DNA of 32,000 nucleotides. It comes from an uncultured bacterium (lineage in GTDB: Bacteria > Patescibacteriota > Gracilibacteria > UBA1369 > PNNO01). The notes below the pieces were generated by a model, which ran no database searches, was not told the origin of the DNA, and worked only from the letters and a program-made list of their open reading frames with translations. Below are positions 1,741 through 32,000 of this stretch, piece after piece. Positions within the stretch are counted from its first letter, which is position 1; every line of letters starts with the position of its first letter. A program made the position numbers and the translations under genes. The stretch covers positions 990,001 through 1,022,000 of the forward strand of contig OY969931.1 in assembly GCA_963704705.1 (NCBI GenBank). Reading direction: 5' to 3'.

Positions 1741-1760
1741 ATAATTAACTTAAAAATACT

Positions 1761-2267: not shown

Positions 2268-2304
2268 CAGAGTCGAAGACAAAATATTTAACAAATCGCT
2301 CAAA

Positions 2305-3820: not shown

Positions 3821-4312
3821 ATGCTCAACTATTATAAACCAATTAAAAAATATTTAGCTGCATTAATTGTAGTGCTTATTGCCCTTATAATATATTTAAG
3901 TGCAATGATCTTTACGGAAGATAATTATGAGTGGTTTCTTAATTTAAAAAAACCCGCATATCAACCTGAAGCATGGGTATTTATGCTTGTTTGGGCCGTG
4001 CTTTTTGCCTTAATTGCTGCTTCAGCAATTATTATTTTATTCAGTAATAAACAAAATAGAAAAAAATGCAATTTTGTAATAATGCTTTTTATTATTAATG
4101 CATTATTGAATGCGATTTTTAATCTGGCAATGTTTGGGCTGCACAATTTATTAATGGCGATAATTATACTCCCGTTTTATTTAGCTTCAATATTCGTTCT
4201 TATTTATTGCTCATATAAAGTAAATAAAATAGCTGCATATTTACTTGTGCCTTATGCACTTTGGTCAATATATGCAACCATTTTAACGGTTTCATTTATG
4301 TTAATTAATTAG
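3821..4312 (+). CDS. tspO: TspO/MBR family tryptophan-rich sensory protein (5-TM)
   Basis: WFLNLKKPAYQPEAWVFMLVWAVLFALIA and C-terminal LLVPYALWSIYATILT match my memory of the TspO family signature. Five hydrophobic segments. Confidence 0.7.
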   Translation: MLNYYKPIKKYLAALIVVLIALIIYLSAMIFTEDNYEWFLNLKKPAYQPEAWVFMLVWAVLFALIAASAIIILFSNKQNRKKCNFVIMLFIINALLNAIFNLAMFGLHNLLMAIIILPFYLASIFVLIYCSYKVNKIAAYLLVPYALWSIYATILTVSFMLIN

Positions 4313-5488: not shown

Positions 5489-6631
5489 GTGAAAATCGGA
5501 CTGGCAATTACAGCAAAATCTACATTCACATTAATAAATAATTTATTTTGGTTCTATGTTCCTGTTTATTTAATAGATAAAGGATTTTCAGGATGGCATG
5601 TAGGAATTTTTGTAGGACTCGCAAGTTTGGTTTCAATAATAACAATATTACCTGCAGGTATTGCAAATGATAGGATTAAATCTAAAAAAATAATTATTTA
5701 TTCATTATTTTTTAGCATAATTTACTATTTAGGATTAATAACTACTGAAAATGTAATTTTATTGGGAGCTGCATTTATACTTGGAGGTCTTGGAAAAAAT
5801 ATTTTTAATGTTTCAATTGATGCTTTAACTTTTAAAATAATTGAAAAGAAAAAATCTTCAATTCAAATTGGAAAATATTTAGCCTGGAATACTTTTGGTG
5901 CAATTTTAGGATTTATTATTGGTGGATATGCGATTACAAATTTTGGTTATAATAGTACGTTAATTGGCATTCTAACTTTGCTTGTTATTTTAATTTTTGG
6001 GTCTTCATTTTTGCCAATTACTCAAACAATAAAAGTTAAATTGTTTAAATATCGTAAAGATTTATTTAATAAAGAAGTATTATTTTTTATATTTATTGTA
6101 TTTTTATTTACATTGCATTATGGAGCAGAAGCCACCTCTTATTCTTTATTTTTAAGAGAAAATTTTACATTAAATTTATATAATGTTGGATTATTTATTG
6201 CTGGAGCAAATATATTTTTAATAATAGGAAACTGGATTTTCGCAAATAAGGTTCAAAACGGATTTGATCCAAAAAAAGTTTTCTATTTTGCTTTGATTGT
6301 TAGTGGATTGGGTCATATTTTATTTTCGATTCAAAGTGATGTGTGGTGGTCATTTGCATTTAGATGCTTTCATGAACTTGGCGATGGAGCGATGATATTC
6401 AGTATTTATTATGGAATTGTCAGGATCTTTAATATTGAAAGAATAGGAGGCAATTCAAGCTTCATTACTTTAATTACTATAATATCAAGTTCTGTTGGTG
6501 CATTTATTTTTGGACCGTTAGGTGAAAAATTTGGATATTATTTACCTTTATTAATAACAGGAGGAACAAATTTGCTGGCATTTTTAATGCTTTTCTATTT
6601 CAGCAAAAAAGTGTTGCCGAATAGAGCATAA
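5489..6631 (+). CDS. MFS-type transporter (GTG start)
   Basis: About 10-12 hydrophobic helices over 380 aa. The loop LPAGIANDRIKSKK after TM2 resembles MFS motif A (G-x-x-x-D-R-x-G-R-K/R). Substrate unknown. Confidence 0.65.
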   Translation: MKIGLAITAKSTFTLINNLFWFYVPVYLIDKGFSGWHVGIFVGLASLVSIITILPAGIANDRIKSKKIIIYSLFFSIIYYLGLITTENVILLGAAFILGGLGKNIFNVSIDALTFKIIEKKKSSIQIGKYLAWNTFGAILGFIIGGYAITNFGYNSTLIGILTLLVILIFGSSFLPITQTIKVKLFKYRKDLFNKEVLFFIFIVFLFTLHYGAEATSYSLFLRENFTLNLYNVGLFIAGANIFLIIGNWIFANKVQNGFDPKKVFYFALIVSGLGHILFSIQSDVWWSFAFRCFHELGDGAMIFSIYYGIVRIFNIERIGGNSSFITLITIISSSVGAFIFGPLGEKFGYYLPLLITGGTNLLAFLMLFYFSKKVLPNRA

Positions 6632-6669
6632 AAGTACTACACTGCTTAAGTATTTAAAAGAAAAGGCTT

Positions 6670-7689
6670 ATGCATATTGGATTAACCGGATACCTTGCCT
6701 GCGGCAAAGGAGAACTTGCTAAAATTTTACAAAAAAATGGATTTGAATACATTTCGTTATCAGATGTTGTCCGTAAATCAGCAACTGATCAAGGTTTAGA
6801 ACATACGCGCGAAAATTTACAAAAAGTAGGCAATGAATTACGTGCAAAATTCGGAAGCGGCCACTTTTCACGTGAAGTTCGTAAAGAAATTGAAGCAAAT
6901 CCTGATAAAAAATATGTGATTGATGGAATCAGAAATCCAATGGAAGCAAAAGAGTTGCAGGCTTTACCTGATTTTTACTTAGTTGGAATTAGCGCAAAGC
7001 CCGAAACAATTGTAGAAAGAGTATTATCACGAAAAAGAGAAGGTGATAATTTAACTAAAGAAGATATTTTGGCGAAACTCGACATTGAAAAAGGAAAAAA
7101 TCAACCAACAGATGGTCAACAAGTGGCAAAATGTTTAGAAATGGTCAACTTTTTAATAATAAATGAAGGAAGTTTAGAAGAAGTTGAAAAAAAGATAGAA
7201 CACTTTTTAGGAATTCTTAATGGAACACAGCGTCCAACATTCGATGAAGTATTTATGGGCAATGCAGTTAACTGGTCTCAAAGATCAACATGTTTAAGAA
7301 GAAAAGTAGGTTCTGTAATTTCAAAAGATAATCAACAATTAACAGCCGGGTACAATGGTGCACCACGAACAATGAAGCATTGCGCTGAACTTGGTGGCTG
7401 TCTTCGCGAAAAACTTGGAATTCCTTCAGGTCAGCGCCACGAAATTTGCCGCGGAACACATGCAGAACAAAATGCGATTACCCAAGCTGCAAAATTCGGC
7501 ATTACAATCGAAGGCGGAACACTTTATTGCAACACTCACCCATGCAGTATTTGCACAAAAATGATTATTAACGCAGGAATAACTAAAGTAGTTTATGACT
7601 CTGACTACGATGATGCACTTTCAAAAGAAATGCTTGGTGAACAAACAGCATTGGAATTGGTGAGGTTTGAAGGATTAAGAAGCTTGTAA
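6670..7689 (+). CDS. Fusion protein: N-terminal UPF0200/adenylate-kinase-like P-loop domain plus C-terminal dCMP (deoxycytidylate) deaminase
   Basis: The N-terminal half has MHIGLTGYLACGKGELAKIL...YVIDGIRNPMEAKEL...VNFLIINEGSLEEVEKKIEHFL, a dephospho-CoA-kinase/UPF0200-like layout. The C-terminal half has the zinc deaminase motifs CRGTHAEQNAI and THPCSICTKMIINAGITKVVY (HAE...PCxxC, ComEB-type). Confidence 0.8.
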   Translation: MHIGLTGYLACGKGELAKILQKNGFEYISLSDVVRKSATDQGLEHTRENLQKVGNELRAKFGSGHFSREVRKEIEANPDKKYVIDGIRNPMEAKELQALPDFYLVGISAKPETIVERVLSRKREGDNLTKEDILAKLDIEKGKNQPTDGQQVAKCLEMVNFLIINEGSLEEVEKKIEHFLGILNGTQRPTFDEVFMGNAVNWSQRSTCLRRKVGSVISKDNQQLTAGYNGAPRTMKHCAELGGCLREKLGIPSGQRHEICRGTHAEQNAITQAAKFGITIEGGTLYCNTHPCSICTKMIINAGITKVVYDSDYDDALSKEMLGEQTALELVRFEGLRSL

Positions 7690-14415: not shown

Positions 14416-15399
14416 ATGAAAAAATTTTTATGTTTCATTTTCATGTTTGTTTTCTTTACTCAATCTGCATTCGCGGCATTTATTGATGTTCCGCAAACTC
14501 ACCCTAATTATCAGGCTATAAACTATATGCAAAGAAAAGGTATAATCCAGGGTTATGAAGACAATACCTTCAGACCGGATCAAAATGTTGTTAGAGCTGA
14601 AGCAGTTAAAATCATTTTAGCAGCACTGTATGATTCTTTTGACACAGTAAGTGAAAATCCATTTCCGGATGTATCAACAGATCAATGGTTTGCGCCATTT
14701 GTAAAAAAAGCAAAAGAACTTAATATAATAAGCGGAGACGGTGTTACCGGGAATTTTGAAGGAGCAAGAAACGTTAATTTAGCTGAGTTTTTAAAAATCC
14801 TTACTCTTGCATATAAAGTTGATTTAAGTCCTTATCAAAATCAAACAGAAGTTATTTTTGATGATGTACAGGATTTAAAACAATGGTTTATTCCTTATTT
14901 ATATTATGCAGCTTCAACAAACCTGATTCATGGTGATCAAAACAATTATATTTATGTTGGAGACCCGTTAACACGAGCTGAAGTAGCTGAAATCACTTTT
15001 AGACTAATTATTAATATTGAAGGCGGCGATGTTCAGCTTTATTTGAGTATGGCAGAAGCTGAAATGATAAAAATTCTACAATTTCTTGATAATAATGATA
15101 TAAATAATGCTGAAATTTCCGCTGCAAAAGCGGTTCAGTATTCAAATCAGGCAGTAAGTTTATCTCCGGATAAATCTATTGTTTTAGCTGCACAAAAAAT
15201 TGCACAGGCTTTTGATAAATTGGTTAAAGGTTATCGAAGCGGTTTAAATTTAGATTTCACTACAACTGCAAGTCTTGCAGGAGAAGCATGGAATCTTGCA
15301 AATGAAGCTGTTGTTATTGATGGATCAGTACAATCATTATCGGATACAATAAAAGAAATCGCGCACTCCATGGCTGAAGATGCGCGATCATCCAATTAA
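14416..15399 (+). CDS. Secreted protein with three N-terminal S-layer homology (SLH) domains and a helical C-terminal region
   Basis: Signal peptide MKKFLCFIFMFVFFTQSAFA. The three SLH repeats are FIDVPQTHPNYQAINYMQRKGIIQGYEDNTFRPDQNVVRAEAVKIIL, FPDVSTDQWFAPFVKKAKELNIISGD...VNLAEFLKILTLAY and FDDVQDLKQWFIPYLYYAASTNLIHGD...LTRAEVAEITFRLI. Confidence 0.85.
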   Translation: MKKFLCFIFMFVFFTQSAFAAFIDVPQTHPNYQAINYMQRKGIIQGYEDNTFRPDQNVVRAEAVKIILAALYDSFDTVSENPFPDVSTDQWFAPFVKKAKELNIISGDGVTGNFEGARNVNLAEFLKILTLAYKVDLSPYQNQTEVIFDDVQDLKQWFIPYLYYAASTNLIHGDQNNYIYVGDPLTRAEVAEITFRLIINIEGGDVQLYLSMAEAEMIKILQFLDNNDINNAEISAAKAVQYSNQAVSLSPDKSIVLAAQKIAQAFDKLVKGYRSGLNLDFTTTASLAGEAWNLANEAVVIDGSVQSLSDTIKEIAHSMAEDARSSN

Positions 15400-15412: not shown

Positions 15413-16633
15413 TTAGCTGCCTGTATTAAAGTTTAATACAAGACTACCAGCTTCTGCTCCTCCGTTTTTATCAGTGGCAAGTTTCACTGTTACTGTAAAC
15501 CAACCCCCTGCAGTCCAAGTTCCTCCTGTAATAGTCATGTTTGTTGACTCAACCCAGGTATTAGCAACTGAACTTGTAAGGCCGGTGTTGTTACTCATTG
15601 TTACAGCAGCATCTGCAGTATCCTGCATTGTAAGTGCCAATTGATTATCAGCAGCAGCTGTTGTATCAGTTCTGTATTTAAATTCAATCGGGTTTGTTTC
15701 CCAACTATTAAAGTTATCAGGAAGCTGAATTCTTACTTTAATATCATAATCCTGATCAGTAGTTTTTGTTGTTTGCCATCTATAAGAGTTTTCAATGTTA
15801 GTTGCGTCAAAATAATAAGTTAATTGACCTATATTATTACTTCCGTCACCATAATACGTTGAATTTGGATACAAAGGTGCAACAAATATTGAATTTGCTC
15901 CTGAAACATCCGCAAGAGCTACCCAGCTTGAACCATCATATACATAGAATGTATCAAGATCAGTTCTGTAAAAAACCTGACCTTCAACCGCTCCGCCAGG
16001 GAATGAAGTACCCTGATCAATTACCATTTCAACTGCTAAATTCTTATTAAAATCAATATCTCCATTTACTTCCAACGTTCCGTCAACATATAAATCATCA
16101 CTAATATTAAATCTTGTGTTTCCTGAATCCCAACTTATAACTTCTGCTAAGGTTGTACCAAATTGAATTGATATGTCTCCGCCAGTATCATTAGCATCCA
16201 ATAATAAATCTCCATCAGTATTAACACTTCCTGTATTATTTACATCACCAGTGATATTTAAATCATCTGATACAGTAAAATCATCAGTTGCATTATTATA
16301 TTGAATTGAACCAGCTCCATTATTGAAATCAACAGACGAATCAGCGCCTGTTCCATCAACATTGATGCTTAAATTTTCACCTTCCAAATCCAAATTACCT
16401 TCTATATATAAATCGTCTGTAAATTCAAAACGATTATTCGTAACATCATATCTCAATATTTGCCCGAGTGCGTCACCGAACTGAAGTTCAACGTCGGTTG
16501 TACCGTCTCCGTCATCAATAATGAAGAAAGATTCAGTATTAACAAGGTCACCGGTGGTTGCCGCATAGGCAGGCAAAGCCATAACCAGTGAAAGCGCTAA
16601 TAATAGCGGAAGTTTTAGTAATGTGTTTTTCAT
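15413..16633 (-). CDS. Secreted Asp/Gly/Thr/Asn-rich repeat protein (surface paralog A), unknown family
   Basis: Signal peptide MKNTLLKLPLLLALSLVMALPAYA. It has three ~50-aa repeats and a C-terminal domain shared with the upstream gene (DGSNNIGxL, ENxYxW, QDYDI, LPxxFxxWET, FxYR). Confidence 0.75.
   Translation of the reverse strand: MKNTLLKLPLLLALSLVMALPAYAATTGDLVNTESFFIIDDGDGTTDVELQFGDALGQILRYDVTNNRFEFTDDLYIEGNLDLEGENLSINVDGTGADSSVDFNNGAGSIQYNNATDDFTVSDDLNITGDVNNTGSVNTDGDLLLDANDTGGDISIQFGTTLAEVISWDSGNTRFNISDDLYVDGTLEVNGDIDFNKNLAVEMVIDQGTSFPGGAVEGQVFYRTDLDTFYVYDGSSWVALADVSGANSIFVAPLYPNSTYYGDGSNNIGQLTYYFDATNIENSYRWQTTKTTDQDYDIKVRIQLPDNFNSWETNPIEFKYRTDTTAAADNQLALTMQDTADAAVTMSNNTGLTSSVANTWVESTNMTITGGTWTAGGWFTVTVKLATDKNGGAEAGSLVLNFNTGS
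16061..16528 (-). repeat. Three tandem ~50-aa intragenic repeats in surface paralog A
   Basis: aa 36-85: FFIIDDGDGTTDVELQFGDALGQILRYDVTNNRFEFTDDLYIEGNLDLEG. aa 89-135: SINVDGTGADSSVDFNNGAGSIQYNNATDDFTVSDDLNITGDVNNTG. aa 143-191: LLLDANDTGGDISIQFGTTLAEVISWDSGNTRFNISDDLYVDGTLEVNG. A single copy occurs in paralog B: VFILDNDNTSITSIDLQFGNTLGKILSWDLVNGYFNFNDNVNIEGDLTLTG. Confidence 0.65.
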
Positions 16634-16676
16634 TTTTTTAGGTTTTAAATGATATTTTAATGAAATTAATTATATT

Positions 16677-16705
16677 ATTATACACTATTTTTATAAAATT
16701 GTAAA
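16677..16705 (-). promoter_or_regulatory. Internal sigma70-type promoter candidate between the two paralogs
   Basis: On the minus strand: TTTACA (16705-16700), a 17-nt spacer, then TATAAT (16682-16677). It lies 44 nt upstream of the ATG at 16633, within the 75-nt intergenic gap. Confidence 0.35.
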
Positions 16706-16708
16706 GCG

Positions 16709-18115
16709 TTAGCCTTGGTAATTTAGCTTAATTTCACCTAGATTTGCTGTTTCATTATCTTTAGCGTGAACTTTTATTACAATTATAAAGCTTTCACCAG
16801 CTGCAAAGATCGGGGTTCCGCTAAAATTAAGGCTTGTTTGAGCCCATGCCGTACTAGCTAAATTACTTGAAGAACCTGTTAAGGTGACGGGGTTTCCATT
16901 TGTATCATATACAAAAATATCTAATTTCGTATCATTTGTATCTGCGCTTGATGATCTATAATTAAACTGCCATGGATTTACAGTCTCCCATGCTGTAAAT
17001 GTTTTAGGAAGACCCACCTGAAGGACAATATCGTAATCCTGTAACGTGCTTTGTGAACTGGTCCATTCATAATAATTTTCTTTGGCTGTATTATCGTTAT
17101 CCAAATAAAGTCTACCAATATTATTTGATCCGTCAGCAATATAACTTGCGCCCTCAAATTGAGAATTTAGTATTATTGATCGATTAACCGGCCCTGTAGT
17201 TATACCTGCTATAGCCTGATCAATATCATCAATAGCCGTCTCTAAATCCCCTGCTGAATAGTAATTTCCGTCAGTTGCTTCTATATCAATCTCTGAAGCA
17301 TCATGTTTTGACGCTCCTCCATCCAAATGTCCATCAACTGTTGTGCCCAAATCACCTACATCAACACCATCAACAGTGCCTGTTAAAGTTAAATCCCCTT
17401 CAATATTTACATTGTCATTAAAATTAAAATAACCGTTTACCAAATCCCATGACAGAATTTTGCCCAAAGTATTACCAAACTGTAAATCAATTGATGTAAT
17501 TGAAGTATTATCATTATCTAAAATAAAAACATCCTCATTAGTTCCTCCTGGTATTGTTTGAAGAGGGAAAATTCCGCCGGTTCCAAGCAAAGCAATATCG
17601 CCGTCATTGAACCCAATGTCAGCATTATCAAGTGTGTCAGCATTTAAAGCATAGGGCACAGAACCTATTGGAGCTCTATCAACCAATGGATTCCCCGGGG
17701 CACGATCCAAAACTTCATATGAAGTATCTGGATCACCTGTTTTTTTAATTTCAACTTGAATATATAAATGATAAGCTGGATCAATTTGAGGTAATGGAGT
17801 AACTGTACCCAATTCAAATGTCACAAAGCCCTTTGTAGTTGGTAATGCAGTTTGAACTTCTTGCCATCCCGAATAATTTGGAGCACCAGTATTTATCGAC
17901 CCTGCTGCAATATCACCTACGTTAACAGGGCTTTGGCTCCAAAAACTAAATCTGAATGTGTGACTACTCGTTAACGGACTAGTTCCTGCAGAATCAAGAA
18001 GTCTGGCTTCATAAATCATGCGCTGAGGAGCTAAAGATACAGCGCTAACTGCACTAATATTTATTAGTAAGCAAAAAAGTACTGCTGCAATTTTAATTAA
18101 TCTTTTCTTTTGCAT
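16709..18115 (-). CDS. Secreted repeat protein (surface paralog B), unknown family
   Basis: Signal peptide MQKKRLIKIAAVLFCLLINISAVSA. It shares one copy of the LQFG..LG.IL.WD....F.F.D...IEG.L.L.G repeat and the ~150-aa C-terminal domain with 15413-16633. Its start overlaps the upstream gene by 19 nt. Confidence 0.75.
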   Translation of the reverse strand: MQKKRLIKIAAVLFCLLINISAVSAVSLAPQRMIYEARLLDSAGTSPLTSSHTFRFSFWSQSPVNVGDIAAGSINTGAPNYSGWQEVQTALPTTKGFVTFELGTVTPLPQIDPAYHLYIQVEIKKTGDPDTSYEVLDRAPGNPLVDRAPIGSVPYALNADTLDNADIGFNDGDIALLGTGGIFPLQTIPGGTNEDVFILDNDNTSITSIDLQFGNTLGKILSWDLVNGYFNFNDNVNIEGDLTLTGTVDGVDVGDLGTTVDGHLDGGASKHDASEIDIEATDGNYYSAGDLETAIDDIDQAIAGITTGPVNRSIILNSQFEGASYIADGSNNIGRLYLDNDNTAKENYYEWTSSQSTLQDYDIVLQVGLPKTFTAWETVNPWQFNYRSSSADTNDTKLDIFVYDTNGNPVTLTGSSSNLASTAWAQTSLNFSGTPIFAAGESFIIVIKVHAKDNETANLGEIKLNYQG

Positions 18116-19098
18116 AACGAATAAATAGCTGTTATTAAAATTAATATATAAATGAATGATAAATCAAAGCGAATACACGATTTTTTCACGTCAGCTAAAA
18201 TCATTTTTACATAAGCGATTCCATCAGCTATTTCAAACTCAAGTGTTTTATAATTTGTCTGAACTATTACATTCCCTTCATTTTTCAAAGCATAAATCAA
18301 TACAAAATATTTATCATCAGGTAAAATATCAATTGATTTTATTTTAAATTCACCGTTTTCATCAGCAACAGCATAAGATTTATTTATATGATCATTTTCA
18401 AACCAAATAGCAACAACTTCATAGCCGCTTCCTGTTTTTCCTTCAATAGCTACGTGGTTGTTATCGCTTTCCAGTACTTCTTCCGGGATATTTAATGTTA
18501 ATGGTTCTATATCATAGTCAGTCACCTGAATAAAATCATATTCATCATATTTTTTATCTAACTGATAATAAATAATCGGTTTATCTTCAGTAAAGATGAA
18601 GATGTTTTTATCTTCTTTAATCATTTCTTCCACTTCTTCAGGTGAAGGTTTTAAAATTTCAATTGGTTCCTGTTGTTCTGATATTTGAACAGGTTCTTCA
18701 GCTGCCTGCTCTTCAGATGAAATCAATTCTCTGCTTTCTTCAGCAGGTATTGTTGAAATTATCGGAATATCTGAATAAGCCAAAGGTCCGCCGCCACCGC
18801 CTGAGCCTGTATTTGAGACTCCGCCGCCAGTAGGTGGCGGGGTTGGTGGAGTTAAAGTTAAATCCAAATCACTATTTGCATCCACTAAAGTATAAGATCC
18901 AGATTTAGAGTATCTTTCAGTCCATGATATTGAACTTAAATCAAGAGAATAAGATAGACTTTCCATATATCCCTCGTTTGTTCCAAAATTTAAATTTTCA
19001 TCATCTACTTGATAAGTACTGCTTGCAGAAGCATAAGCAAAACCAGCACTTAAAATGAATATTACAAGAAATGAAACTATTTTTTGTTTTTCTGACAC
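18097..19098 (-). CDS. Secreted, C-terminally membrane-anchored protein with Pro/Gly linker, acidic region and Ig-like/CarboxypepD_reg-like beta domain (GTG start)
   Basis: N-terminal signal IVSFLVIFILSAGFAYASA. Linker PPTPPPTGGGVSNTGSGGGGGP, then an acidic stretch EESRELISSEEQAAEEPVQISEQQEP. The segment VAIEGKTGSGYEVVAIWFENDH...AVADENGEFKIKS has a beta-sandwich-like pattern. The C-terminal TM helix is FDLSFIYILILITAIYSL followed by CKRKD. Confidence 0.6.
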   Translation of the reverse strand: MSEKQKIVSFLVIFILSAGFAYASASSTYQVDDENLNFGTNEGYMESLSYSLDLSSISWTERYSKSGSYTLVDANSDLDLTLTPPTPPPTGGGVSNTGSGGGGGPLAYSDIPIISTIPAEESRELISSEEQAAEEPVQISEQQEPIEILKPSPEEVEEMIKEDKNIFIFTEDKPIIYYQLDKKYDEYDFIQVTDYDIEPLTLNIPEEVLESDNNHVAIEGKTGSGYEVVAIWFENDHINKSYAVADENGEFKIKSIDILPDDKYFVLIYALKNEGNVIVQTNYKTLEFEIADGIAYVKMILADVKKSCIRFDLSFIYILILITAIYSLCKRKD

Positions 19099-23627: not shown

Positions 23628-24203
23628 ATGGCAAAATCTTCCAAATTAGCGCTACTTCAGGATATGCTAGAGAATGCGGAATCAAGTATTCGTTCAGCTA
23701 AAGCACTTCTTCTTGATTTAGGGCTAAAAAAATCAGATCTAAAAGAACAATATGAAAAATCAGCAGAAGAATTAACTTCAACTGATTCTCCTGAAGGAAA
23801 AATCATTGAAGGTGTGTTTAATGGCCAGGAAATGATAGGACCAGATAAAAGAAACTATCCGGTACCAGCTAATTACGCGAGTAAATCAAAGCTTATTCCA
23901 GGCGATGTTCTTAAATTGACTATTCAAGATGACGGATCATTTATTTATAAGCAAATCGGACCTGCTGACAGAAAGAAAATTGTTGGTACTCTAACTTTAG
24001 AAGACGGACAATATAAAGTTTTGTGCAAAGGTAAAGCTTATAAAGTATTATTGGCTTCCGTTACTTATTTCAGAGCAGAAGTCGGTGATAAAGTTACACT
24101 CGTAGTGCCTAACATCGAAGACAGTGAATGGGGTGCAATTGAAAATGTATTACCACAAGATGAAGAGCATGAAGAAGGAGAAGTTGACCTTAATAAATTT
24201 TAG
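23628..24203 (+). CDS. Hypothetical protein (N-terminal helix plus two small beta-rich modules, acidic tail)
   Basis: 191-aa ORF sitting where ftsA would follow sbp in Firmicutes. No FtsA/actin-fold motifs. No family recognised. Confidence 0.55.
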   Translation: MAKSSKLALLQDMLENAESSIRSAKALLLDLGLKKSDLKEQYEKSAEELTSTDSPEGKIIEGVFNGQEMIGPDKRNYPVPANYASKSKLIPGDVLKLTIQDDGSFIYKQIGPADRKKIVGTLTLEDGQYKVLCKGKAYKVLLASVTYFRAEVGDKVTLVVPNIEDSEWGAIENVLPQDEEHEEGEVDLNKF

Positions 24204-24206
24204 TTT

Positions 24207-25175
24207 ATGGCTTTCTCATGGGATAAAGTAAAGAGGCCCATTCTTGCGCTTGCTCCAATGGAAGGCTATACGGACTCTGCTTTCAGGCAGCTTATTAAAA
24301 CTTACGCTCCTGATATAATTTGTTTTACTGAATTTACTTCAGCAGATGCTTTAAAATACAACAGTAAAAAATCCATTGGGAAAATTGGTTTTGATAAAAA
24401 AGAAAAACCGCTTATTGTACAGCTTTTTGGCAAACATCCTGATCATTTTATTGAGGCTATTAAATACGTGGAAAATATGGGTGCTGACGGTATAGATATC
24501 AATATGGGATGCCCTGCTAAAAATGTAATTAATTCTCAGCACGGTTCAGCTTTGCTTAAAAATCCTGAATTAGCTTGCGAAATAGTTAAAGCTGTTTCTT
24601 CAAATACCAAATTACCGGTTTCAGTTAAAATGAGAATCGGATTTAAAGAATACAATGAACAGGCGTTTATGGATTTTTGTCTTAATTTAGAGAAAAACGG
24701 AGCTAAAGCATTAACCATTCATGGCAGAACAACAAAACAGGGATATTCCGGAACAGCTGATTGGGATCCCATTTATAAATTGAAAGAAAAGGTAGGAATA
24801 ACAGTAATTGGAAACGGAGACGTAACTTCACCTGAAATCGCCTTAAAAAAACTTGAAAATCTTGATGGAGTAATGGTTGGAAGGGCAACTTTCGGCAATC
24901 CATTGATAATGAGAGAAATATACGAAGCTCTGCATCCAAAATCCAAAAAACTGAAAAAAATTCCAAATTGGTTTGAAATTGCAGAAAAACATATAAAATT
25001 AAGCATTGAAACAAAAGGTGAAAGGCTTGCAATGTTTGAAATGCGAAAGTATTTGGCCGCATACATAAAAGGCTTTCCTTATGCCGCAAATTATCGCTCA
25101 AGACTTGTACGGGTCGAAACTGAAAAAGAAGCAATGCAATTACTTAAAGAAATTAAAGAAAATTCCCTTAAATAA
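24207..25175 (+). CDS. dus: tRNA-dihydrouridine synthase
   Basis: LAPMEGYTDSAFRQL, GADGIDINMGCPAKNV (catalytic Cys) and ALTIHGRTTKQGYSGTADW are Dus family motifs. Confidence 0.9.
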   Translation: MAFSWDKVKRPILALAPMEGYTDSAFRQLIKTYAPDIICFTEFTSADALKYNSKKSIGKIGFDKKEKPLIVQLFGKHPDHFIEAIKYVENMGADGIDINMGCPAKNVINSQHGSALLKNPELACEIVKAVSSNTKLPVSVKMRIGFKEYNEQAFMDFCLNLEKNGAKALTIHGRTTKQGYSGTADWDPIYKLKEKVGITVIGNGDVTSPEIALKKLENLDGVMVGRATFGNPLIMREIYEALHPKSKKLKKIPNWFEIAEKHIKLSIETKGERLAMFEMRKYLAAYIKGFPYAANYRSRLVRVETEKEAMQLLKEIKENSLK

Positions 25176-25187
25176 GCCCTTAAATAG

Positions 25188-25216
25188 TTGATATTTTATA
25201 GATATTATGATATAAT
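25188..25216 (+). promoter_or_regulatory. Near-consensus sigma70-type promoter upstream of pilT
   Basis: TTGATA (25188-25193), a 17-nt spacer, then TATAAT (25211-25216). It lies 29 nt upstream of the ATG at 25245. Confidence 0.5.
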
Positions 25217-25244
25217 AATATGAATTTAATATAAAAAATCAAAA

Positions 25245-26309
25245 ATGGACTTAAAACTATCAAAAATATTCAGAACAGCAGTGCAATATAATGCCTCTGA
25301 TATCTATATAACAACCGGTTCAAAGCCGATACTTAGAATCAACGGTGATTTGGTAAGAATTCAGGAACATGAGCCGTTTTCAAAGAAAATGGCAGAAGAA
25401 TTTTTACTGGAAATAATGTCAGAAGAACAAAAAAGACATTTTGCAAAGAAACTTGATCTGGATTTTTCAATTGATATCGAATCTATCGGAAGATTCAGGG
25501 TTAATATGTTTGTTCAAAGAAAAGGTATAGGAGCTATTTTCAGGGTAATCCCGAACAAAATCTTTACAATGGATGAACTTAATCTACCTGAACAGCTTAA
25601 AAACATACCTAAATTCAAAAACGGGCTAGTTATAGTTACAGGTCCTACAAGTTCAGGTAAATCAACTACACTTTCAGCTATTGTTAATGAAATTAATGTT
25701 AAAGATGCAAAGCATATTATTACAATTGAAGATCCTATTGAGTTCATTCATGAATCTCAAAGCTCTGTTATTGATCAAAGAGAGGTTGGAACGCATACAT
25801 TAAGCTTTCAGCGCGCTTTAAAATCTTCTTTGCGTGAAGATCCGGATGTAATTTTAATCGGTGAAATGCGTGATCTTGAAACAATTTCGCTTGCTATTAC
25901 CGCTGCTGAAACAGGGCATCTTGTTCTTGCAACCCTGCATACGAGCGGTGCAGCAAAATCTATTGATCGTATTATTGATGCTTTCCCTAGTGAACAGCAA
26001 AATCAAATTAGAACGCAATTAGCAGAAGCTTTAAAAGCTGTGATTTGGCAAAATCTATTAAAAACAAAAGATAGAAAAGGCCGAATAGGAGCTTTTGAAA
26101 TATTATTTGGAAATCACGCGATTGCAAATATGATAAGAAAAGGAAACACACATCAAATTGATTCGGTACTTGAAACAAGCACTCATGAAGGCATGCAGAC
26201 AATGAAAAAATCATTGGAAGATTTGATGCAGGCAGACCTTGTTGATGAAGAAGAAGCACTTGCTTTTATGCCTAAAGAATTAGATGAAACAGAAGGAAAA
26301 ACCAACTAA
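25245..26309 (+). CDS. pilT: Type IV pilus retraction ATPase PilT family
   Basis: GLVIVTGPTSSGKSTTLSA (Walker A), DVILIGEMRDLETI (Walker B/Asp box), TGHLVLATLHT (His box) and HAIANMIRKGNTHQI (PilT-type AIxNxIRExK motif). Confidence 0.9.
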   Translation: MDLKLSKIFRTAVQYNASDIYITTGSKPILRINGDLVRIQEHEPFSKKMAEEFLLEIMSEEQKRHFAKKLDLDFSIDIESIGRFRVNMFVQRKGIGAIFRVIPNKIFTMDELNLPEQLKNIPKFKNGLVIVTGPTSSGKSTTLSAIVNEINVKDAKHIITIEDPIEFIHESQSSVIDQREVGTHTLSFQRALKSSLREDPDVILIGEMRDLETISLAITAAETGHLVLATLHTSGAAKSIDRIIDAFPSEQQNQIRTQLAEALKAVIWQNLLKTKDRKGRIGAFEILFGNHAIANMIRKGNTHQIDSVLETSTHEGMQTMKKSLEDLMQADLVDEEEALAFMPKELDETEGKTN

Positions 26310-26314
26310 CATAA

Positions 26315-27112
26315 ATGGAAATGATTGGAAATAAAAACAAAAATAAAAGTTGGATGATTAAAATATTGGCTCTGGCGATTATCGTTTTTTTTAATGGGAC
26401 GGTTTTTGGAGGGGTTGCGATGGCCAATCCTACGACTTGTAAAAACACATATGATGGAGCAGTTAAACAATGTGAAAAAGATGCAAATAATCAAGCAATT
26501 GAAAAATGTGGTGCATACGAACCAGGGACACCAACCAGGCAAGCATGTGAAGAAGATAATAGGATAGAAAAAACAAAAACAACTTGCCTCGAAACTGCAA
26601 AATCAACTTATAATGATTGTCTTACTGCAAGCGCAAATTGCGGAAATGGAATACCAGAACCAGGCGAAGAATGTGATGATGGAGAAGGTAAGGGTGATGA
26701 CGTAGATAAATATTTAGATGCAACAAAACCTGATAAAGAAAAACAATTGGATTCTTGTTTTGAATGCAAATATGTTGATGTTCCTTATGAATTTAATGTA
26801 ACAAAATATTTAAAAATTCCTGAAGGTCAGACTTACCTTGAAAAAAGCACAAATACTGATACTTCGGTAAGTTTAAAAAAAGGAGTTATTTATTTTATTG
26901 TTACAGGAATAGAATTCGCCACAAAAATAATTAGTGCGTTTGCATTATTATTTATAATTGTCGGCGGCATAGTTTTAATGGTTTCAAGTGGTAATTCGTC
27001 TCTTCAGCAAAAAGGTAAAAGGCTGATTTTATATTCGATATTGGGATTAGTTATTGCATTCATGTCATTAATAATCGTTACATCCGTTCAATCAATATTT
27101 TATACAACTTAA
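26315..27112 (+). CDS. Pilin-like hairpin protein 1: signal peptide, Cys-rich ectodomain with CGNG..GE.CDDG module, C-terminal VirB2/TrbC-like two-helix hairpin
   Basis: Signal MIKILALAIIVFFNGTVFGGVAMA. CGNGIPEPGEECDDGEG...SCFECKY lies at aa 109-151 (nt 26639-26767). The C-terminus is ISAFALLFIIVGGIVLMVSSGNSSLQQKGKRLILYSILGLVIAFMSLIIV. Confidence 0.7.
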   Translation: MEMIGNKNKNKSWMIKILALAIIVFFNGTVFGGVAMANPTTCKNTYDGAVKQCEKDANNQAIEKCGAYEPGTPTRQACEEDNRIEKTKTTCLETAKSTYNDCLTASANCGNGIPEPGEECDDGEGKGDDVDKYLDATKPDKEKQLDSCFECKYVDVPYEFNVTKYLKIPEGQTYLEKSTNTDTSVSLKKGVIYFIVTGIEFATKIISAFALLFIIVGGIVLMVSSGNSSLQQKGKRLILYSILGLVIAFMSLIIVTSVQSIFYTT

Positions 27113-27664
27113 ATGAAAAAATTACTGGCACTTACAATTTGTTTAATGATTTCAATTCCCCTTTTAAGTGGAGTTGCATTAGCCGCAGATCCAAAATTAA
27201 CACCAGAAACTGTTTGTCCGACTCTAAATACCGGACAGGATACTTCAGGAATCTTTGTGATTTTAGAAGAACCTTTGGGAGGGCCGGATGCTATTTATTG
27301 TTTTAGGGTATGTTCAAGAATAGTAAAAGAAAAAAATAATTGTAAAATAAAAGCAACATGTGACAAAACAGATAAAGATTTAGGACCTAATCCAACTTGT
27401 CAAAGAATACAAGTTATTAAAGCAACATCAGGTGTAAATTTGCTTAATCAATATGTTGGATTGATCTATTTGTGGTCTGCAGGAACAATAGGAATAATAG
27501 CAGTATTAACGATTGTAATAAGCGGAATACAAATAATGACTGCGGGTGGTTCAGGTAATATTGATACAGCTAAAAGCAGAATAGTTCAGGCAATATTCGG
27601 TTTAGTCGTATTGTTTTTGTCAGGCTTGATTCTTTATACAATTAACCCAACTTTCTTTGTTTAA
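27113..27664 (+). CDS. Pilin-like hairpin protein 2 (six-Cys ectodomain plus VirB2/TrbC-like hairpin)
   Basis: Signal MKKLLALTICLMISIPLLSGVALA. C-terminus GTIGIIAVLTIVISGIQIMTAGGSGNIDTAKSRIVQAIFGLVVLFLSGLILY. The start abuts the previous stop (TAAATG). Confidence 0.7.
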   Translation: MKKLLALTICLMISIPLLSGVALAADPKLTPETVCPTLNTGQDTSGIFVILEEPLGGPDAIYCFRVCSRIVKEKNNCKIKATCDKTDKDLGPNPTCQRIQVIKATSGVNLLNQYVGLIYLWSAGTIGIIAVLTIVISGIQIMTAGGSGNIDTAKSRIVQAIFGLVVLFLSGLILYTINPTFFV

Positions 27665-28460
27665 AAGTTTAAAACAATTAGGTGCGATTTTAATTTTAAG
27701 TTTAATACTTATTAGTTCAATTAATACAGTTTTTGCAGCTACTTCAACAACTTATGAAGAATGTATTCAGGCATTTAAATCTGATAATAATAATTATGCT
27801 GCTTGTGATGCTATGCAAAAAGATGCAGAAAAGTGTTTTACAGACGCCGAAGCAAGCTTTAAAGAAATCTGCAATAATAATGCTACATGTATTCAAAATC
27901 TTAAAAATGATCCTCAAAGTTTAGCATTATGTTTGCAAAAAGATGATGACGCTAAAAAATGTATAACTAAAGCGGATCAATCTTTTGAAGAAATTTGCCG
28001 CGCACAGTTCCCATCGAATACAACTTCAACCACAGGTTCTTCATCTTGCGGAAACGGAATTTTTGAAGAAGGTGAAGGATGCGATGATGGAAATTTAATG
28101 AGTGGAGACGGATGTGATTCAAAATGCATGACTGAAGAGACAGTTCCACCGGCAATACCTAATATCAAAACTCTTCCTGGCCCTAACGCGCCAACCGTAG
28201 GTAATGTAAGCCCTTATTTAATGTCTACTTTCTTGCCGCGAATAGCCAAAACTGTTATATCTTTTGCCATTGGTGCCGCTGTTTTAGGATTAATTATAAG
28301 TTCGATCGGGTTATTAACAGCCTATGGTAATGAAGAAAAATATGGTAACGCAAAAAAAGGATTATTATTTTCTATGATTGGACTTGTTATAAGTTTATTG
28401 GCATTTGCAATTGTACAATTGATATTCTTTACAGGATTTCAAATCGGTAATATTACATAA
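27657..28460 (+). CDS. Pilin-like hairpin protein 3: duplicated Cys-helix motif, CGNG..GEGCDDGN..GDGCDSKC module, C-terminal hairpin (TTG start)
   Basis: Signal LGAILILSLILISSINTVFA. CGNGIFEEGEGCDDGNLMSGDGCDSKC lies at aa 131-157 (nt 28047-28127). C-terminus FAIGAAVLGLIISSIGLLTAYGNEEKYGNAKKGLLFSMIGLVISLLAFAIV. It overlaps the previous gene by 8 nt, and there is no in-frame ATG near the signal peptide. Confidence 0.65.
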   Translation: MFKSLKQLGAILILSLILISSINTVFAATSTTYEECIQAFKSDNNNYAACDAMQKDAEKCFTDAEASFKEICNNNATCIQNLKNDPQSLALCLQKDDDAKKCITKADQSFEEICRAQFPSNTTSTTGSSSCGNGIFEEGEGCDDGNLMSGDGCDSKCMTEETVPPAIPNIKTLPGPNAPTVGNVSPYLMSTFLPRIAKTVISFAIGAAVLGLIISSIGLLTAYGNEEKYGNAKKGLLFSMIGLVISLLAFAIVQLIFFTGFQIGNIT

Positions 28461-28894
28461 TGAAAACAAAAAAATACTTAAAAACAGGAATTTCAATTGT
28501 GGTTTTAATATCCGCTCTGTTAATAAATGCTGTTTTTGTTCAGGCTGCGACAATACCTGAAAAAAAACCTAAAATTGAAGATCTTTTATATAAATATGAA
28601 TCAAGTTTTACTGCTAATCCTACAACGACTGATTACATTGCTTCGCTTCCTGAAGATACTTCTCCGGGTCAATTACTTTCACAATTGGTATTTTACTTAT
28701 TAATCGTATGCAACATACTCGCGTTTATTTCATTTTTAGCGGCTGGAGTTATGATGGTTATTTCACAAGGTAATGATGAAGAAATAACAAAAGCAAAACG
28801 AATATTTACTTATACATTAATTGCATTGGTTGTTTGCGCAACCGCACTCGCGCTGGTGACAGGTATAACAAAATTAAGATTTTTTAATCCGTAA
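28460..28894 (+). CDS. Pilin-like hairpin protein 4 (short Cys-free ectodomain plus hairpin)
   Basis: Signal ISIVVLISALLINAVFVQA. C-terminus CNILAFISFLAAGVMMVISQGNDEEITKAKRIFTYTLIALVVCATALALV. TAATG start/stop overlap with the previous gene. Confidence 0.7.
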   Translation: MKTKKYLKTGISIVVLISALLINAVFVQAATIPEKKPKIEDLLYKYESSFTANPTTTDYIASLPEDTSPGQLLSQLVFYLLIVCNILAFISFLAAGVMMVISQGNDEEITKAKRIFTYTLIALVVCATALALVTGITKLRFFNP

Positions 28895-28895
28895 A

Positions 28896-29432
28896 ATGAT
28901 AAAAAAATTACTGACAACAGGGCTTTTAACACTAATAATTATACTGACAATACCAGCTACATTTGCTCAGCGTGCAATTGACCCTTCACTTAAACCTGAA
29001 AATGCACCTGGTGTACCTTTAACCGGGCCAGGAGTAGTTGATTGTTTGAATGAATATAAACAAACACAATTAGCTGAAACAATAAAAAAAGAAATTGAAG
29101 GAAAATCTGCTGATGAACAGAAAACTATTCTGGAAAATCACAAAACAGAAATAGCAAAATACTGGGATGTTAATTCTTCTATGTGCAAAGGTCATGAAGA
29201 AGAACCAATTACCGCATTCATTCAAATAATTGCAGGTGCATTGCTAATGCTTACAGGTGGTATAGCGGTAATAGTCATAGCTGTTGGTGGCGTAATGTAT
29301 GTTGTTTCAGGCGGAAATCAGCAACAAATGGAATTCGCTAAAAACACCTTAAAATACGGCTTTATTGGTATGGCAGTAATAATATTTTCATATTATATAG
29401 TTCAGACTGTTCTTACTCTTATTATTGGGTAG
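28896..29432 (+). CDS. Pilin-like hairpin protein 5 (two-Cys ectodomain plus hairpin)
   Basis: Signal LLTTGLLTLIIILTIPATFA. C-terminus IAGALLMLTGGIAVIVIAVGGVMYVVSGGNQQQMEFAKNTLKYGFIGMAVIIFSYYIV. There is a 1-nt gap after the previous gene. Confidence 0.7.
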   Translation: MIKKLLTTGLLTLIIILTIPATFAQRAIDPSLKPENAPGVPLTGPGVVDCLNEYKQTQLAETIKKEIEGKSADEQKTILENHKTEIAKYWDVNSSMCKGHEEEPITAFIQIIAGALLMLTGGIAVIVIAVGGVMYVVSGGNQQQMEFAKNTLKYGFIGMAVIIFSYYIVQTVLTLIIG

Positions 29433-30942
29433 GTTCGAGGCGAGGGAATAATTGATCACATTCTTTTATTTTTTCTCCTGATTTTAAAGTCCCCCATTCT
29501 TCAACCAATTTAAAATTTTCTTCTAATGGTTTTTTGCCAAATGATTTAAGAATCTTTTCAGATGTTTCCGGAATAAAAGGATAAAGCGCGTAAGCTATGT
29601 GCCTTAATACCTCCAATAAATGATATAAAACATCTCCTAAAGCTTTTTCGTCTTCTTTTGCGAGTACCCATGGTTTTTTATCTTCAATATATTTATTTGC
29701 ATCATCAATTCGTGCTAAAACTTCTTCCACTGCTTTTTTTAGATCAAATTTATTAATTAATTCATGATAGTTTTCCCACATTAGTTCAACTTTTTTAATA
29801 AATCCTTCATCCGGAGTTGAGACTTCAGGAACTTTTCCGTCGAAATATCTTTCAGTCATTTTTGTTACTCTGTTCATTAAATTACCCAGGTTGTTTGCAA
29901 GTTCACTATTATAAAGTTCTTCAAATCTTTCATAAGTAAAATCACCGTCTTCAGTTGTTGGAATCTCACGTAAAAGGAAATAACGCAAAGGGTCGGTTCC
30001 GTATTTTTCAACAACATCAAAAGGTGAAATAACATTGTTTAAAGATTTGCTCATTTTGTGTCCCCCGCTTGAAATAAATCCGTGAATCGGAATAGATTTT
30101 GGAGTCTGAAGACCTGCAGAAAGCAAAATTCCAATCCAAATCCCCGCATGAAATCTAATAATGTCTTTTCCAATTACATGAGCATCACAAGGCCAGTATT
30201 TTTCGAATAATTCTCCGTCGTTTTCATAATCCAAAGCAGTAATATAGTTTGATAAAGCATCGCACCATACATACATTGTATGATCGGGATCATTAGGTAC
30301 TTCGATGCCCCAGCTTAATTTATCTTTTGGACGTGAAAAGCTGACATCCCGGAGTCCTTCTTTTGCAACATTCAAAAATTCACGTTTTCGATAGTTCGGC
30401 TCAATTTTTATCTCATCTTTTTCAATTAATTCCGCAATTTTATCTGAATATTTTGAAAGTCTAAAGTAATAATTTTCTTCACTAAATTTTTCCACTTCTT
30501 TTTTATGGATTGGACACTTTCCGTCTTCCAAATCTTTCTCTGTCACATAAGCTTCGCATCCTTTGCAGTAAAATCCTTCATATTTATCTTTATATATATC
30601 CCCTGCTTCAAAAAGTTTCATCCATAATTTTTGTGCGCCGCGCTTGTGCCTGTCAGATGTTGTACGGATAAAATCATCATAAGATAAATTCAATAATTTT
30701 TTTAATTTCTTATTTTGATTCGCAATATCATCAACATGCTCCTGCGGAGTAATACCAAGCTCTTTGGCAGTATCGTGAATCTTCATTCCATGCTCATCAG
30801 TGCCTGTTAAAAAATAAACATCTTCGCCAAGCAACCGATGATAGCGCGCCAAACAATCAGCTTCAATTGCCTCCATTGCGAAACCAATGTGCGGAGCAGC
30901 GTTTGCATAAGGAATACTCGTTGTCACATAAAATTTACTCAT
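29422..30942 (-). CDS. metG: Methionyl-tRNA synthetase (short form without C-terminal tRNA-binding appendix)
   Basis: FYVTTSIPYANAAPHIGF (HIGH-type motif), a Zn knuckle CKGCEAYV...GKCPIHK, and HKMSKSLNNV (KMSKS). Confidence 0.93.
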   Translation of the reverse strand: MSKFYVTTSIPYANAAPHIGFAMEAIEADCLARYHRLLGEDVYFLTGTDEHGMKIHDTAKELGITPQEHVDDIANQNKKLKKLLNLSYDDFIRTTSDRHKRGAQKLWMKLFEAGDIYKDKYEGFYCKGCEAYVTEKDLEDGKCPIHKKEVEKFSEENYYFRLSKYSDKIAELIEKDEIKIEPNYRKREFLNVAKEGLRDVSFSRPKDKLSWGIEVPNDPDHTMYVWCDALSNYITALDYENDGELFEKYWPCDAHVIGKDIIRFHAGIWIGILLSAGLQTPKSIPIHGFISSGGHKMSKSLNNVISPFDVVEKYGTDPLRYFLLREIPTTEDGDFTYERFEELYNSELANNLGNLMNRVTKMTERYFDGKVPEVSTPDEGFIKKVELMWENYHELINKFDLKKAVEEVLARIDDANKYIEDKKPWVLAKEDEKALGDVLYHLLEVLRHIAYALYPFIPETSEKILKSFGKKPLEENFKLVEEWGTLKSGEKIKECDQLFPRLEPTQ

Positions 30943-30957
30943 GACTCTATTTAACCC

Positions 30958-32000
30958 TTATTCAGAAGGTTTTTCAAGGTAACCTTCAGGGTTCTGTTTA
31001 TCGCCTTCTCCCCCAACCTGAGTTCTATAGAGTGAAAAATTGAATACCGGCATGAAAGTATTAGGCTTTATAAAGGCCTCAATTTGTTTTCGTAATTTCT
31101 GGAAAGTGCCTGTTGAATCAATTTTTGCATAATCTCTGATTGTATATTCACCATCATCAGGAATTAATATTCTGTAATAAATTCGTGCTCTTTTTCTTTT
31201 TTCAAAATCAGAACCACCCTGTAAAAGTTCAGGATTAAATATATTTGAAAGACTTAAATAATTAGAATCATGACAATCCAAAAACTCTTTAATTGTCACT
31301 GGATTTGAAGTGTCTTCAGTATATTTTACTGTTCGTGCCTCGCCATTTGAATCTAGCTGATATACAAAAGCTTCACGTGCCCACTGCCACAAATACGCGC
31401 AATTTTCATTATATTGAATCCCGTTTCGATCATCAGTAAAGCCGGCTGAAGTTGTTCCGAAACAAGAAGGCCAGTCCTCATTTGAACCAATCCATACCGG
31501 AAGATAATCTCCGATAAATTCAGTGGTAAGTTTATCAGGATTAGGGTCAAAATATTTACTGCAAACCGAACCAACCTGTGCCCCGCTGTTAATACCTGTA
31601 ATTTTCCATCTAAGCATATCAAGAACACCTTTTTGTAATGCTTCATTCAATTCAGGAACAGCATCAATAAAAAACTCAACTCTAAAATCACTCACATTTT
31701 TTACAGAAACATCTTCATTTTGAACAAATAATGGAACTGTTAATGTATCATTCAAATCAAGATATCCATAAAGGTAAGTTTTTGGATCATCCTGAGCAAG
31801 TTCTTTGTTAATTATTTCTGTGTCAACAAAAGGCATGGACTTGGCTTTATTGCCGATTGAATATTCAAAACTCAAATCTTCACCAATATTATAAGAATCA
31901 CCATTCACAATAAGTTCTCCTTTTATCATTTTATCTTCTTTTTCAAATCCAGGTAATTTTTGATGCAAATCCAAAAGCGCACTTTCAATACCTGACTCAG
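30958..32000 (-). CDS. Hypothetical protein, N-terminus probably beyond the right edge
   Basis: The track ORF 30958-31974 starts at a TTG. The frame remains open upstream to the window edge (..ESGIESALLDLHQK), so the true start is likely outside the window, or possibly the internal ATG at 31929. No family recognised. Confidence 0.55.
   Translation of the reverse strand, partial: ESGIESALLDLHQKLPGFEKEDKMIKGELIVNGDSYNIGEDLSFEYSIGNKAKSMPFVDTEIINKELAQDDPKTYLYGYLDLNDTLTVPLFVQNEDVSVKNVSDFRVEFFIDAVPELNEALQKGVLDMLRWKITGINSGAQVGSVCSKYFDPNPDKLTTEFIGDYLPVWIGSNEDWPSCFGTTSAGFTDDRNGIQYNENCAYLWQWAREAFVYQLDSNGEARTVKYTEDTSNPVTIKEFLDCHDSNYLSLSNIFNPELLQGGSDFEKRKRARIYYRILIPDDGEYTIRDYAKIDSTGTFQKLRKQIEAFIKPNTFMPVFNFSLYRTQVGGEGDKQNPEGYLEKPSE

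Follow-up and report, generated by a model that had tools for sequence, protein, structure and literature searches.

The window analysed here, a stretch of 32,000 nucleotides of contig OY969931.1 from an uncultured member of the Gracilibacteria, carries between positions 25188 and 29432 a pilT gene followed, on the same strand, by five tandem genes for small hairpin proteins resembling conjugative pilins. These five genes are referred to as the array, and their positions as slots 1 to 5. pilT (25245..26309, plus strand) encodes a type IV pilus retraction ATPase of 354 aa, with matches to TIGR01420 and PF00437. The array genes, also on the plus strand, all encode a signal peptide and a C-terminal VirB2-like hairpin, and they differ in what lies between the two. 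Slot 1 (26315..27112, 265 aa, 27.7 bits on the Pfam model PF18895) has a Cys-rich ectodomain with 10 Cys, slot 2 (27113..27664, 183 aa, 27.4 bits) an ectodomain with 7 Cys, and slot 3 (27657..28460, 267 aa, TTG start, 28.7 bits) a Cys-rich ectodomain with 12 Cys. The shortest paralog, slot 4 (28460..28894, 144 aa, 34.7 bits), has a linker of about 40 aa, and slot 5 (28896..29432, 178 aa, 34.4 bits) an ectodomain of about 80 aa. The upstream boundary gene is dus (24207..25175, plus strand), coding for a tRNA dihydrouridine synthase (PF01207 Dus in L001, a contig identical to the window, and in relatives). An earlier note on this DNA had seen in the locus a hybrid of a retraction ATPase and conjugative-type pilins, possibly with five interchangeable subunits.

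All five array proteins score at or above the gathering score of PF18895, the T4SS_pilin family (26.6 bits; observed range 27.4 to 34.7 bits, E 1.8e-8 to 3.5e-6). Each has exactly three hydrophobic segments: the signal peptide at the N-terminus and, at the C-terminus, two helices with a basic loop between them. The architecture of helix, basic loop and helix claimed in the earlier note is thereby upheld. The hairpin loops are of the form GN-x(6)-AK, with one to three K/R residues. For slot 4, an AlphaFold2 model places the two hairpin helices at residues 69-101 and 106-136 with pLDDT >90. The ends of the signal peptides, located by eye, read AMA|N, ALA|A, VFA|A, VQA|A and TFA|Q for slots 1 to 5 and fit the -3/-1 rule, and none of the open reading frames (ORFs) of the window contains a class III prepilin motif; the signals are thus of the Sec type and not of class III, as had been claimed. 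Mature array proteins would measure about 115 to 240 aa. The Cys-rich repeat of slot 3 matches DUF4215 (24.2 bits) and TIGR02232 (myxo_disulf; 42.1 bits for a cut-off of 20.8), while the match of slot 1 to TIGR02232 is weak, at 18.2 bits, and falls under that cut-off.

A sigma-70-type promoter at 25188..25216 on the plus strand (TTGATA, a 17-nt spacer with a TG inside it, TATAAT; 11 of 12 positions match) precedes pilT, and it was the top-scoring site in a promoter scan of positions 24000 to 31000. The junctions along the six genes are, in order, a 5-nt gap, 0 nt, an 8-nt overlap, a 1-nt TAATG overlap and a 1-nt gap. Coordinates, junctions and the near-consensus promoter all agree with what had been noted earlier. 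Across seven orthologous loci the gap from pilT to slot 1 ranges from -11 to 27 nt. The TTGATA -35 element and the extended -10 element TGnTATAAT are kept in six of the seven orthologous dus-pilT spacers, the sequence of which has otherwise diverged; the exception, L084, has a weaker -35. This promoter before pilT is the single conserved one, and the space before the array is too small for a second. A terminator scan found none between pilT and the array, none inside the operon and none after slot 5. Because of the short gaps in seven loci and the conserved promoter, we consider, on structural grounds, that pilT and the five pilin genes are likely to be co-transcribed, in keeping with the earlier proposal. 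No recognisable Shine-Dalgarno sequence was present before pilT or any of the five array genes (25176-29432), and several array starts are coupled to the preceding stop (TAATG; 8-nt overlap). Coupled starts of this kind without a Shine-Dalgarno sequence suggest translational coupling or leaderless-like initiation in this lineage. Facing the operon, metG (29422..30942, minus strand) encodes a methionyl-tRNA synthetase with tRNA-synt_1g and Anticodon domains. It is convergent with the array, its 3' end overlapping that of slot 5 by 11 nt.

The PilT protein scores 452.2 bits on TIGR01420 (cut-off 319.1) over residues 5 to 343. Its motifs are intact: Walker A GPTSSGKS, the Asp box IITIED, Walker B ILIGEMRD, the His box HLVLATLHT, and AIANMIRK, a variant of the AIRNLIRE-type motif which we take to mark PilT rather than PilU. 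The possibility of a disguised VirB11, DotB or TraJ protein was considered and rejected, as scores on those models lie far under the cut-offs (155 bits on DotB TIGR02524, cut-off 463; 154 on TraJ TIGR02525, cut-off 368). The same is true of the PilB and GspE models. By these scores and motifs, PilT is an orthodox type IV pilus retraction ATPase. The gene identities given in the earlier note, a genuine PilT and five members of the T4SS_pilin family known from the candidate phyla radiation (CPR), were therefore correct.

The conservation of the link between pilT and the array was examined by scanning a hairpin-module profile over all loci retrieved, and by inspecting the contexts of the homologs found with that profile. 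The closest PilT relatives in reference genomes, at 83 to 90% identity, belong to metagenome-assembled genomes of Candidatus Peribacteria/Peregrinibacteria and to one single-cell genome. Identity next falls to 64% and 60% in two relatives, and then to about 50% in unrelated phyla. We take the class Gracilibacteria of GTDB to contain the Peribacterales. A block consisting of dus, pilT, five hairpin genes, convergent metG and a type IV pilus cluster was found on 11 contigs from one clade of ultrasmall Peregrinibacteria (window/L001, L002, L004, L082, L083, L084, L085, L089, L090, L091 and L100), where L085 begins inside the array and so shows neither dus nor pilT, and the stretches of L004, L089, L091 and L100 show no pilus cluster. 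PilT identity within the clade is 77 to 91%, every complete clade locus has exactly five hairpin genes, and metG has the same position in all clade loci.

Outside this clade the link disappears. In a control set of 154 PilT loci of other lineages, 1.98 Mb in all, not one had a hairpin gene near PilT; these loci came from a metagenome scan and their PilT proteins were at most 53% identical among the matches listed. With 0 of 154 other loci against all complete clade loci, the linkage between pilT and the array exceeds chance. The two relatives of intermediate identity were also without a hairpin gene within 10 kb. In the first (L007, PilT 60%), an ftsQ-like gene, dus and pilT are kept, and the genes after them encode a sigma-factor-like protein and an ABC exporter; in the second (L006, PilT 64%), pilT lies between a gene for a giant SLH protein and a methyltransferase gene. 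The adjacency of dus and pilT is older than that of pilT and the array. Thus pilT adjacency, which the earlier note had left to be looked for in relatives, is retained in the 11 clade contigs and lost at 60 to 64% PilT identity. A region of about 20 kb is collinear across the clade (pfkB, Vut_1, L28, ftsQ-like, DUF1290, dus and others), so that conservation of the pilT-array junction is not specific. Small differences were seen around it: L090 has an acyltransferase gene (HGSNAT_cat/Acyl_transf_3; 6394-7137) between metG and the PilX-like gene, and an extra gene of 133 to 238 aa precedes dus in L082, L084, L089, L091 and L100. The pilT-array junction is intact despite these local indels.

The five slots are positional orthologs, in fixed order, in all clade genomes. 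Between these genomes the hairpins are 55 to 96% identical and the ectodomains are less conserved, whereas the module identity among the five paralogs is only about 16 to 25%. Since orthology is strict across the clade and mutual identity is so low, the array is best read as an old set of five non-redundant genes, that is, ancient paralogs and not interchangeable recent copies; the idea of five interchangeable subunits can be abandoned. Ectodomain length varies widely in slots 1 and 3, the orthologs of which range from 152 to 496 aa and from 154 to 357 aa, respectively. Expanded orthologs of slots 1 and 3 (L083, 6961-8451; L085, 466-1539) carry Cys-rich 'CGNG...CDDG' repeats of the TIGR02232/DUF4215 type. 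In these two slots the hairpin seems to have stayed fixed while an extracellular repeat was gained and lost in modular fashion.

Beyond metG, on the minus strand, the window ends inside a gene for a PilX_N-like pilin protein (30958..32000; ORF 30958-31974). The part seen is the C-terminal part of a protein of 400 aa, the N-terminus of which lies past base 32000. L001, 14.2 kb long, extends past the window end, and its sequence and those of relatives gave the full order: the PilX_N-like gene (400 aa), three prepilins, PilC, PilO and a gene of about 190 aa. The full PilX-like gene and the cluster are present at 11088-14195 in L001 and at 8177-13399 in L002. The domains detected were PilX_N (weak), N_methyl three times, T2SSF (PilC) and PilO, and the three prepilins (228, 208 and 194 aa) have class III signals of the GFTLIE type. 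A cluster of PilX-like, N_methyl, PilC and PilO genes was found beyond metG in L001, L002, L082 to L085 and L090. It begins about 1.5 kb past the array, metG standing between the two, so that the conventional partners of PilT lie about 1.5 to 7 kb away. As this canonical type IV pilus cluster adjoins the array across metG, the presence of PilT is explained. PilB, PilM, PilD and a major pilin were absent from the cluster and from the stretches of the loci that were examined; the pilus genes of this clade are therefore split over several loci. The earlier note had stressed that no PilA-type pilin, PilB, PilC, VirB4 or VirB6 is present in the window. This is literally true, and none of PilB, PilC, VirB4 and VirB6 was detectable there even among unannotated ORFs at relaxed Pfam thresholds, but the window happens to end inside the first gene of a pilus cluster.

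The kinship of the hairpins to other pilin families was assessed with a profile of the hairpin module built on a set of 104 homologs. Of these, 103 match PF18895 and 54 also match the TrbC/VirB2 model PF04956, with a best E of 5.4e-8. None of the array proteins of the window reaches the gathering score of PF04956 (27.9 bits), and only slot 2 matches it at all (14.1 bits, E 0.056); of the two family assignments raised in the earlier note, that to PF18895 holds, by gathering score, for all five proteins and that to TrbC for none. Profiles were then compared by hhalign with a reference set of eight genuine VirB2/TrbC genes from MPF_T plasmids, where the annotation places every one of them between virB1 and virB3. 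The broad family profile aligned with P 3.3e-4 over 67 columns, with the whole hairpin in register, and the clade profile with P 0.013 over 61 columns, also in register. Controls (reversed sequence, ATP-synthase-c) gave P 0.14 to 0.63, and the hhalign probability for the test alignments was only 3 to 38%. By these comparisons, the PF18895-type family appears to be linked to classical VirB2 at the sequence level. A sequence search of the PDB with the 104-member profile gave chance matches to transmembrane segments only, for instance MacB. All five array proteins also match, weakly, the 80-residue model NF045849 (Mbov_0395 pilin-like conjugal transfer protein; E 5e-6 to 0.7), slot 5 being the best with 26 bits (E 5e-6), under the cut-off of 40. 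These weak matches hint that VirB2-like hairpin proteins may, after all, exist in monoderm systems of the MPF-FATA type. Elsewhere in the window, the ORF at 4305-5423 (minus strand, 372 aa) was rejected as a TrbC/VirB2 candidate: it matches with 13 bits (E 0.12) over residues 201 to 234, is missed by the hairpin profiles, and probably represents a chance match to a transmembrane segment.

Arrays of the same kind are found in other Patescibacteria, where the neighbours are different. In three Saccharimonadia-type loci (L086, L087 and L088), three to seven hairpin genes are divergent from an adjoining type IV secretion system (T4SS) core comprising TrbL_3/VirB6-like, PrgI, TraC-like and VirB4-type ATPase genes and a cell-wall hydrolase, and PilT is absent. 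Core genes were sought in the window and the clade loci by phmmer with Saccharimonadia VirB4, TraC-like, PrgI and TrbL_3 queries, the VirB4 queries being 80% identical to each other, and by Pfam searches at E up to 1 on unannotated ORFs; neither gave a match to a T4SS component. A survey of 3,035 Patescibacteria genomes with the same Pfam model (Quinonero-Coronel et al. 2025, PMC12102498) reported VirB4 in 2,417 of the 3,035 assemblies and VirB2-like pilins in 1,948 of those that contain VirB4; in 1,135 of these 1,948 a pilin gene was near virB4. Nearness to virB4 is thus typical, and not obligatory, for PF18895 pilin genes. The same survey described 441 arrays of 2 to 11 VirB2-like genes with a mean identity of 25%, including an array of six pilin genes that is essential in Ca. 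Southlakia epibionticum ML1 and one in Nanosynbacter lyticus TM7x termed the 'Sec-secreted array'. In the class Gracilibacteria, by its account, the components of the T4SS are unusually scattered or escape detection. It mentions 'PilT' zero times. We found no paper describing a pilT-array operon, and none pairing Peregrinibacteria with VirB4. On the question of prior description, which the earlier note could not answer, the arrays themselves are already published (PMC12102498), and what appears to be new is only the linkage to pilT, a modest and clade-restricted addition.

We conclude that the locus is probably a clade-specific operon that co-expresses two surface-appendage systems, not a hybrid machine, and that its pilins would serve a VirB4-based system encoded elsewhere. 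After Sec export and cleavage of the signal peptide, the hairpin would be inserted in the membrane so that its basic loop faces the cytoplasm and both termini lie outside, as for VirB2/TrbC. This topology is suggested by the positive-inside loop and by the structures of VirB2 and TraA, in which the termini are outside and the loop is cytoplasmic, later facing the lumen. The subunits could then be used by a Patescibacterial MPF-FATA-like T4SS (VirB4, TrsD, PrgI/VirB3) encoded elsewhere, and the product may be a short pilus or a surface structure displaying the ectodomains, with the short slot 4 protein as putative bulk subunit and the Cys-rich slots 1 and 3 as candidate host-contact subunits. 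PilT, for its part, would work with the neighbouring type IV pilus genes. Co-transcription would then amount to co-regulation of two host-interaction appendages, with no physical hybrid.

Several points weigh against this reading. Neither the window nor the 10 kb around any clade locus yielded a VirB4, VirB6, PrgI or TraC-like gene. A Foldseek search returned generic hairpins only, at E 1.3 or worse, and gave no support for a fold shared with the solved pilins VirB2 and TraA. Ectodomains of 150 to 190 aa, if borne by every subunit, would crowd a helical filament of the VirB2 type. The survival of the pilT-array junction through gain and loss of neighbouring genes in 11 contigs would also fit selection for a functional link. 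Finally, no such pilus has been observed in any Patescibacterium: reviews treat the pilus as a possibility, and one from 2025, which finds the arrays remarkable, speculates about a pilus in a monoderm.

In a rival reading the five proteins are no filament subunits at all: the hairpin would be a mere membrane anchor and the ectodomains would bind host cells or the S-layer, with no secretion ATPase involved. Static surface display of this sort suits ectodomains that are large and variable in length, unlike the roughly 70 aa of mature VirB2, as well as the presence of the Cys-rich extracellular repeat TIGR02232/DUF4215, the many exported Cys-rich proteins for which Peribacteria genomes are noted, the want of an observed pilus and the non-specific outcome of the fold search. 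We nevertheless hold it to be unlikely, given the apparent sequence homology of the family to TrbC/VirB2 and the consistency with which arrays of this kind accompany T4SS cores in other members of the Patescibacteria; in addition, the hairpin is the best-conserved part of these proteins, which suggests a role beyond anchoring. The adjacency could also be meaningless, the array having landed 3' of pilT in a compact genome, presumably of 1.37 Mb, where read-through is tolerated and not selected. The unrelated housekeeping neighbours (dus, metG), the collinearity of the whole block, the confinement of the linkage to one clade and the greater age of the dus-pilT pair all speak for such an accident. 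However, type IV pilus genes flank the array on both sides, which is not expected of a random landing site, and the junction was kept despite gene gains before dus and after metG, so that we give this explanation little credence.

In the hybrid proposed in the earlier note, the type IV pilus apparatus would handle the hairpins. Either they would be extracted or retracted by PilT, with or without PilC/PilO, or they would be accessory subunits of the type IV pilus, and this would replace the link to VirB4. In its favour are the fusion into one operon with short gaps and one conserved promoter, the bracketing of the array by pilT and the minor-pilin/PilC/PilO cluster, the retention of this arrangement in 11 contigs and the lack of a T4SS core gene nearby. 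There is also a precedent, as the PilT-like ATPases DotB (Dot/Icm) and TraJ (IncI) work inside type IVB secretion systems, and the corresponding models do match the PilT of the window, though weakly. Yet the junction is conserved within a region that is collinear as a whole, the linkage is lost at 60 to 64% PilT identity even where dus-pilT is kept (L007), and it was seen in none of the 154 other PilT loci. Arrays elsewhere accompany VirB4, and PilT is ordinary by score, far from the DotB and TraJ cut-offs. The hairpins, moreover, are without the class III signal and N-terminal helix recognised by the type IV pilus machinery. A true hybrid is, in our judgment, improbable: as a self-standing machine it is not supported, given the pilus cluster about 1.5 kb away, which accounts for PilT, and the arrays that occur elsewhere with VirB4, VirB6, PrgI and TraC-like genes and without PilT. 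Much of what the earlier note had named as refuting its proposal was in fact observed. Its boldest form, in which the type IV pilus system has captured the hairpins, co-expressed with and handled by PilT (or PilC/PilO), to make a retractable or PilT-controlled surface structure of conjugative-type pilins, possibly in a genome without VirB4, strikes us as more improbable still. If true, such a capture would unite two filament superfamilies, held to have no relation to each other, in a genuinely chimeric appendage.

The remainder of the window holds housekeeping genes, among them ilvN, ssb, ilvC, a rhodanese, TspO, an MFS transporter, UvrD, an SLH protein, PfkB, Vut_1, an FtsQ-like protein, DUF1290 and Dus. 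At 1201-3285, ssb is flanked by ilvN, which encodes the small subunit of acetolactate synthase, and by ilvC, which encodes ketol-acid reductoisomerase; the ilvC ORF has a TTG start and a 20-nt overlap with ssb. It is unusual for CPR bacteria to carry genes for the biosynthesis of branched-chain amino acids. The gene at 14416-15399 encodes a protein with three SLH domains, and beside it three consecutive ORFs at 15413-19098 on the minus strand (406, 468 and 333 aa) belong to no Pfam family and show faint invasin, alpha-2-macroglobulin and bactofilin-like matches. Homologous unannotated genes are found upstream of pfkB in relatives. These ORFs may encode cell-surface proteins. Scans for tRNA genes and for Rfam families at gathering score found none in the 32 kb.

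Its link to pilT aside, the locus is an unexceptional representative of a class described before. The operon is of interest since type IV pili and a T4SS with a VirB2-like array have both been reported as essential for the epibiotic life of the one genetically tractable Patescibacterium; an array that is, by prediction, fused transcriptionally to pilT beside a minor-pilin/PilC/PilO cluster provides natural evidence of joint expression, and the clade is a convenient place to look for crosstalk between the two systems. The strict orthology of the five slots argues against simple models of antigenic variation or interchangeable subunits for such arrays. Co-regulation of type IV pili and T4SS is a hypothesis generated by this analysis; a new machine is not established by it.

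Among known systems that combine a PilT-superfamily ATPase or a type IV pilus with a T4SS, the precedents are DotB, TraJ and the IncI plasmid R64, for which a type IV pilus assists the T4SS, and review text cites R64 and Ced of the Sulfolobales as cases. Unlike DotB and TraJ, the ATPase of the window is an orthodox PilT, and no T4SS core is adjacent to it. With classical TrbC/VirB2 proteins (PF04956; Agrobacterium VirB2 and its MPF_T homologs), the array proteins share a signal peptide, two hydrophobic helices and a short polar or basic loop. They differ by a loop about 7 residues longer, by a mature size of 115 to 240 aa with real ectodomains where classical VirB2 has about 70 aa, and by a host that is apparently monoderm. 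Where the eight plasmid examples are flanked by virB1 and virB3, the neighbours of the array are pilT and metG. The Mbov_0395/MMCAP2_0565 proteins of Mycoplasma integrative and conjugative elements come from a monoderm MPF-FATA-type context, which fits the ancestry proposed for the Patescibacterial T4SS; unlike the array, they are single genes in mobile elements and not chromosomal arrays. The closest resemblance is to the Patescibacterial arrays of the PF18895 family, which likewise consist of tandem same-strand genes (five here, 2 to 11 reported) with Sec signal peptides and variable N-terminal extensions before a conserved hairpin, and in which identity between paralogs is comparably low (about 16 to 25% here, for a reported mean of 25%). 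Unlike many of these, the array described here does not lie beside virB4, virB6 or prgI; it shares its operon with pilT and adjoins a cluster of type IV pilus genes.

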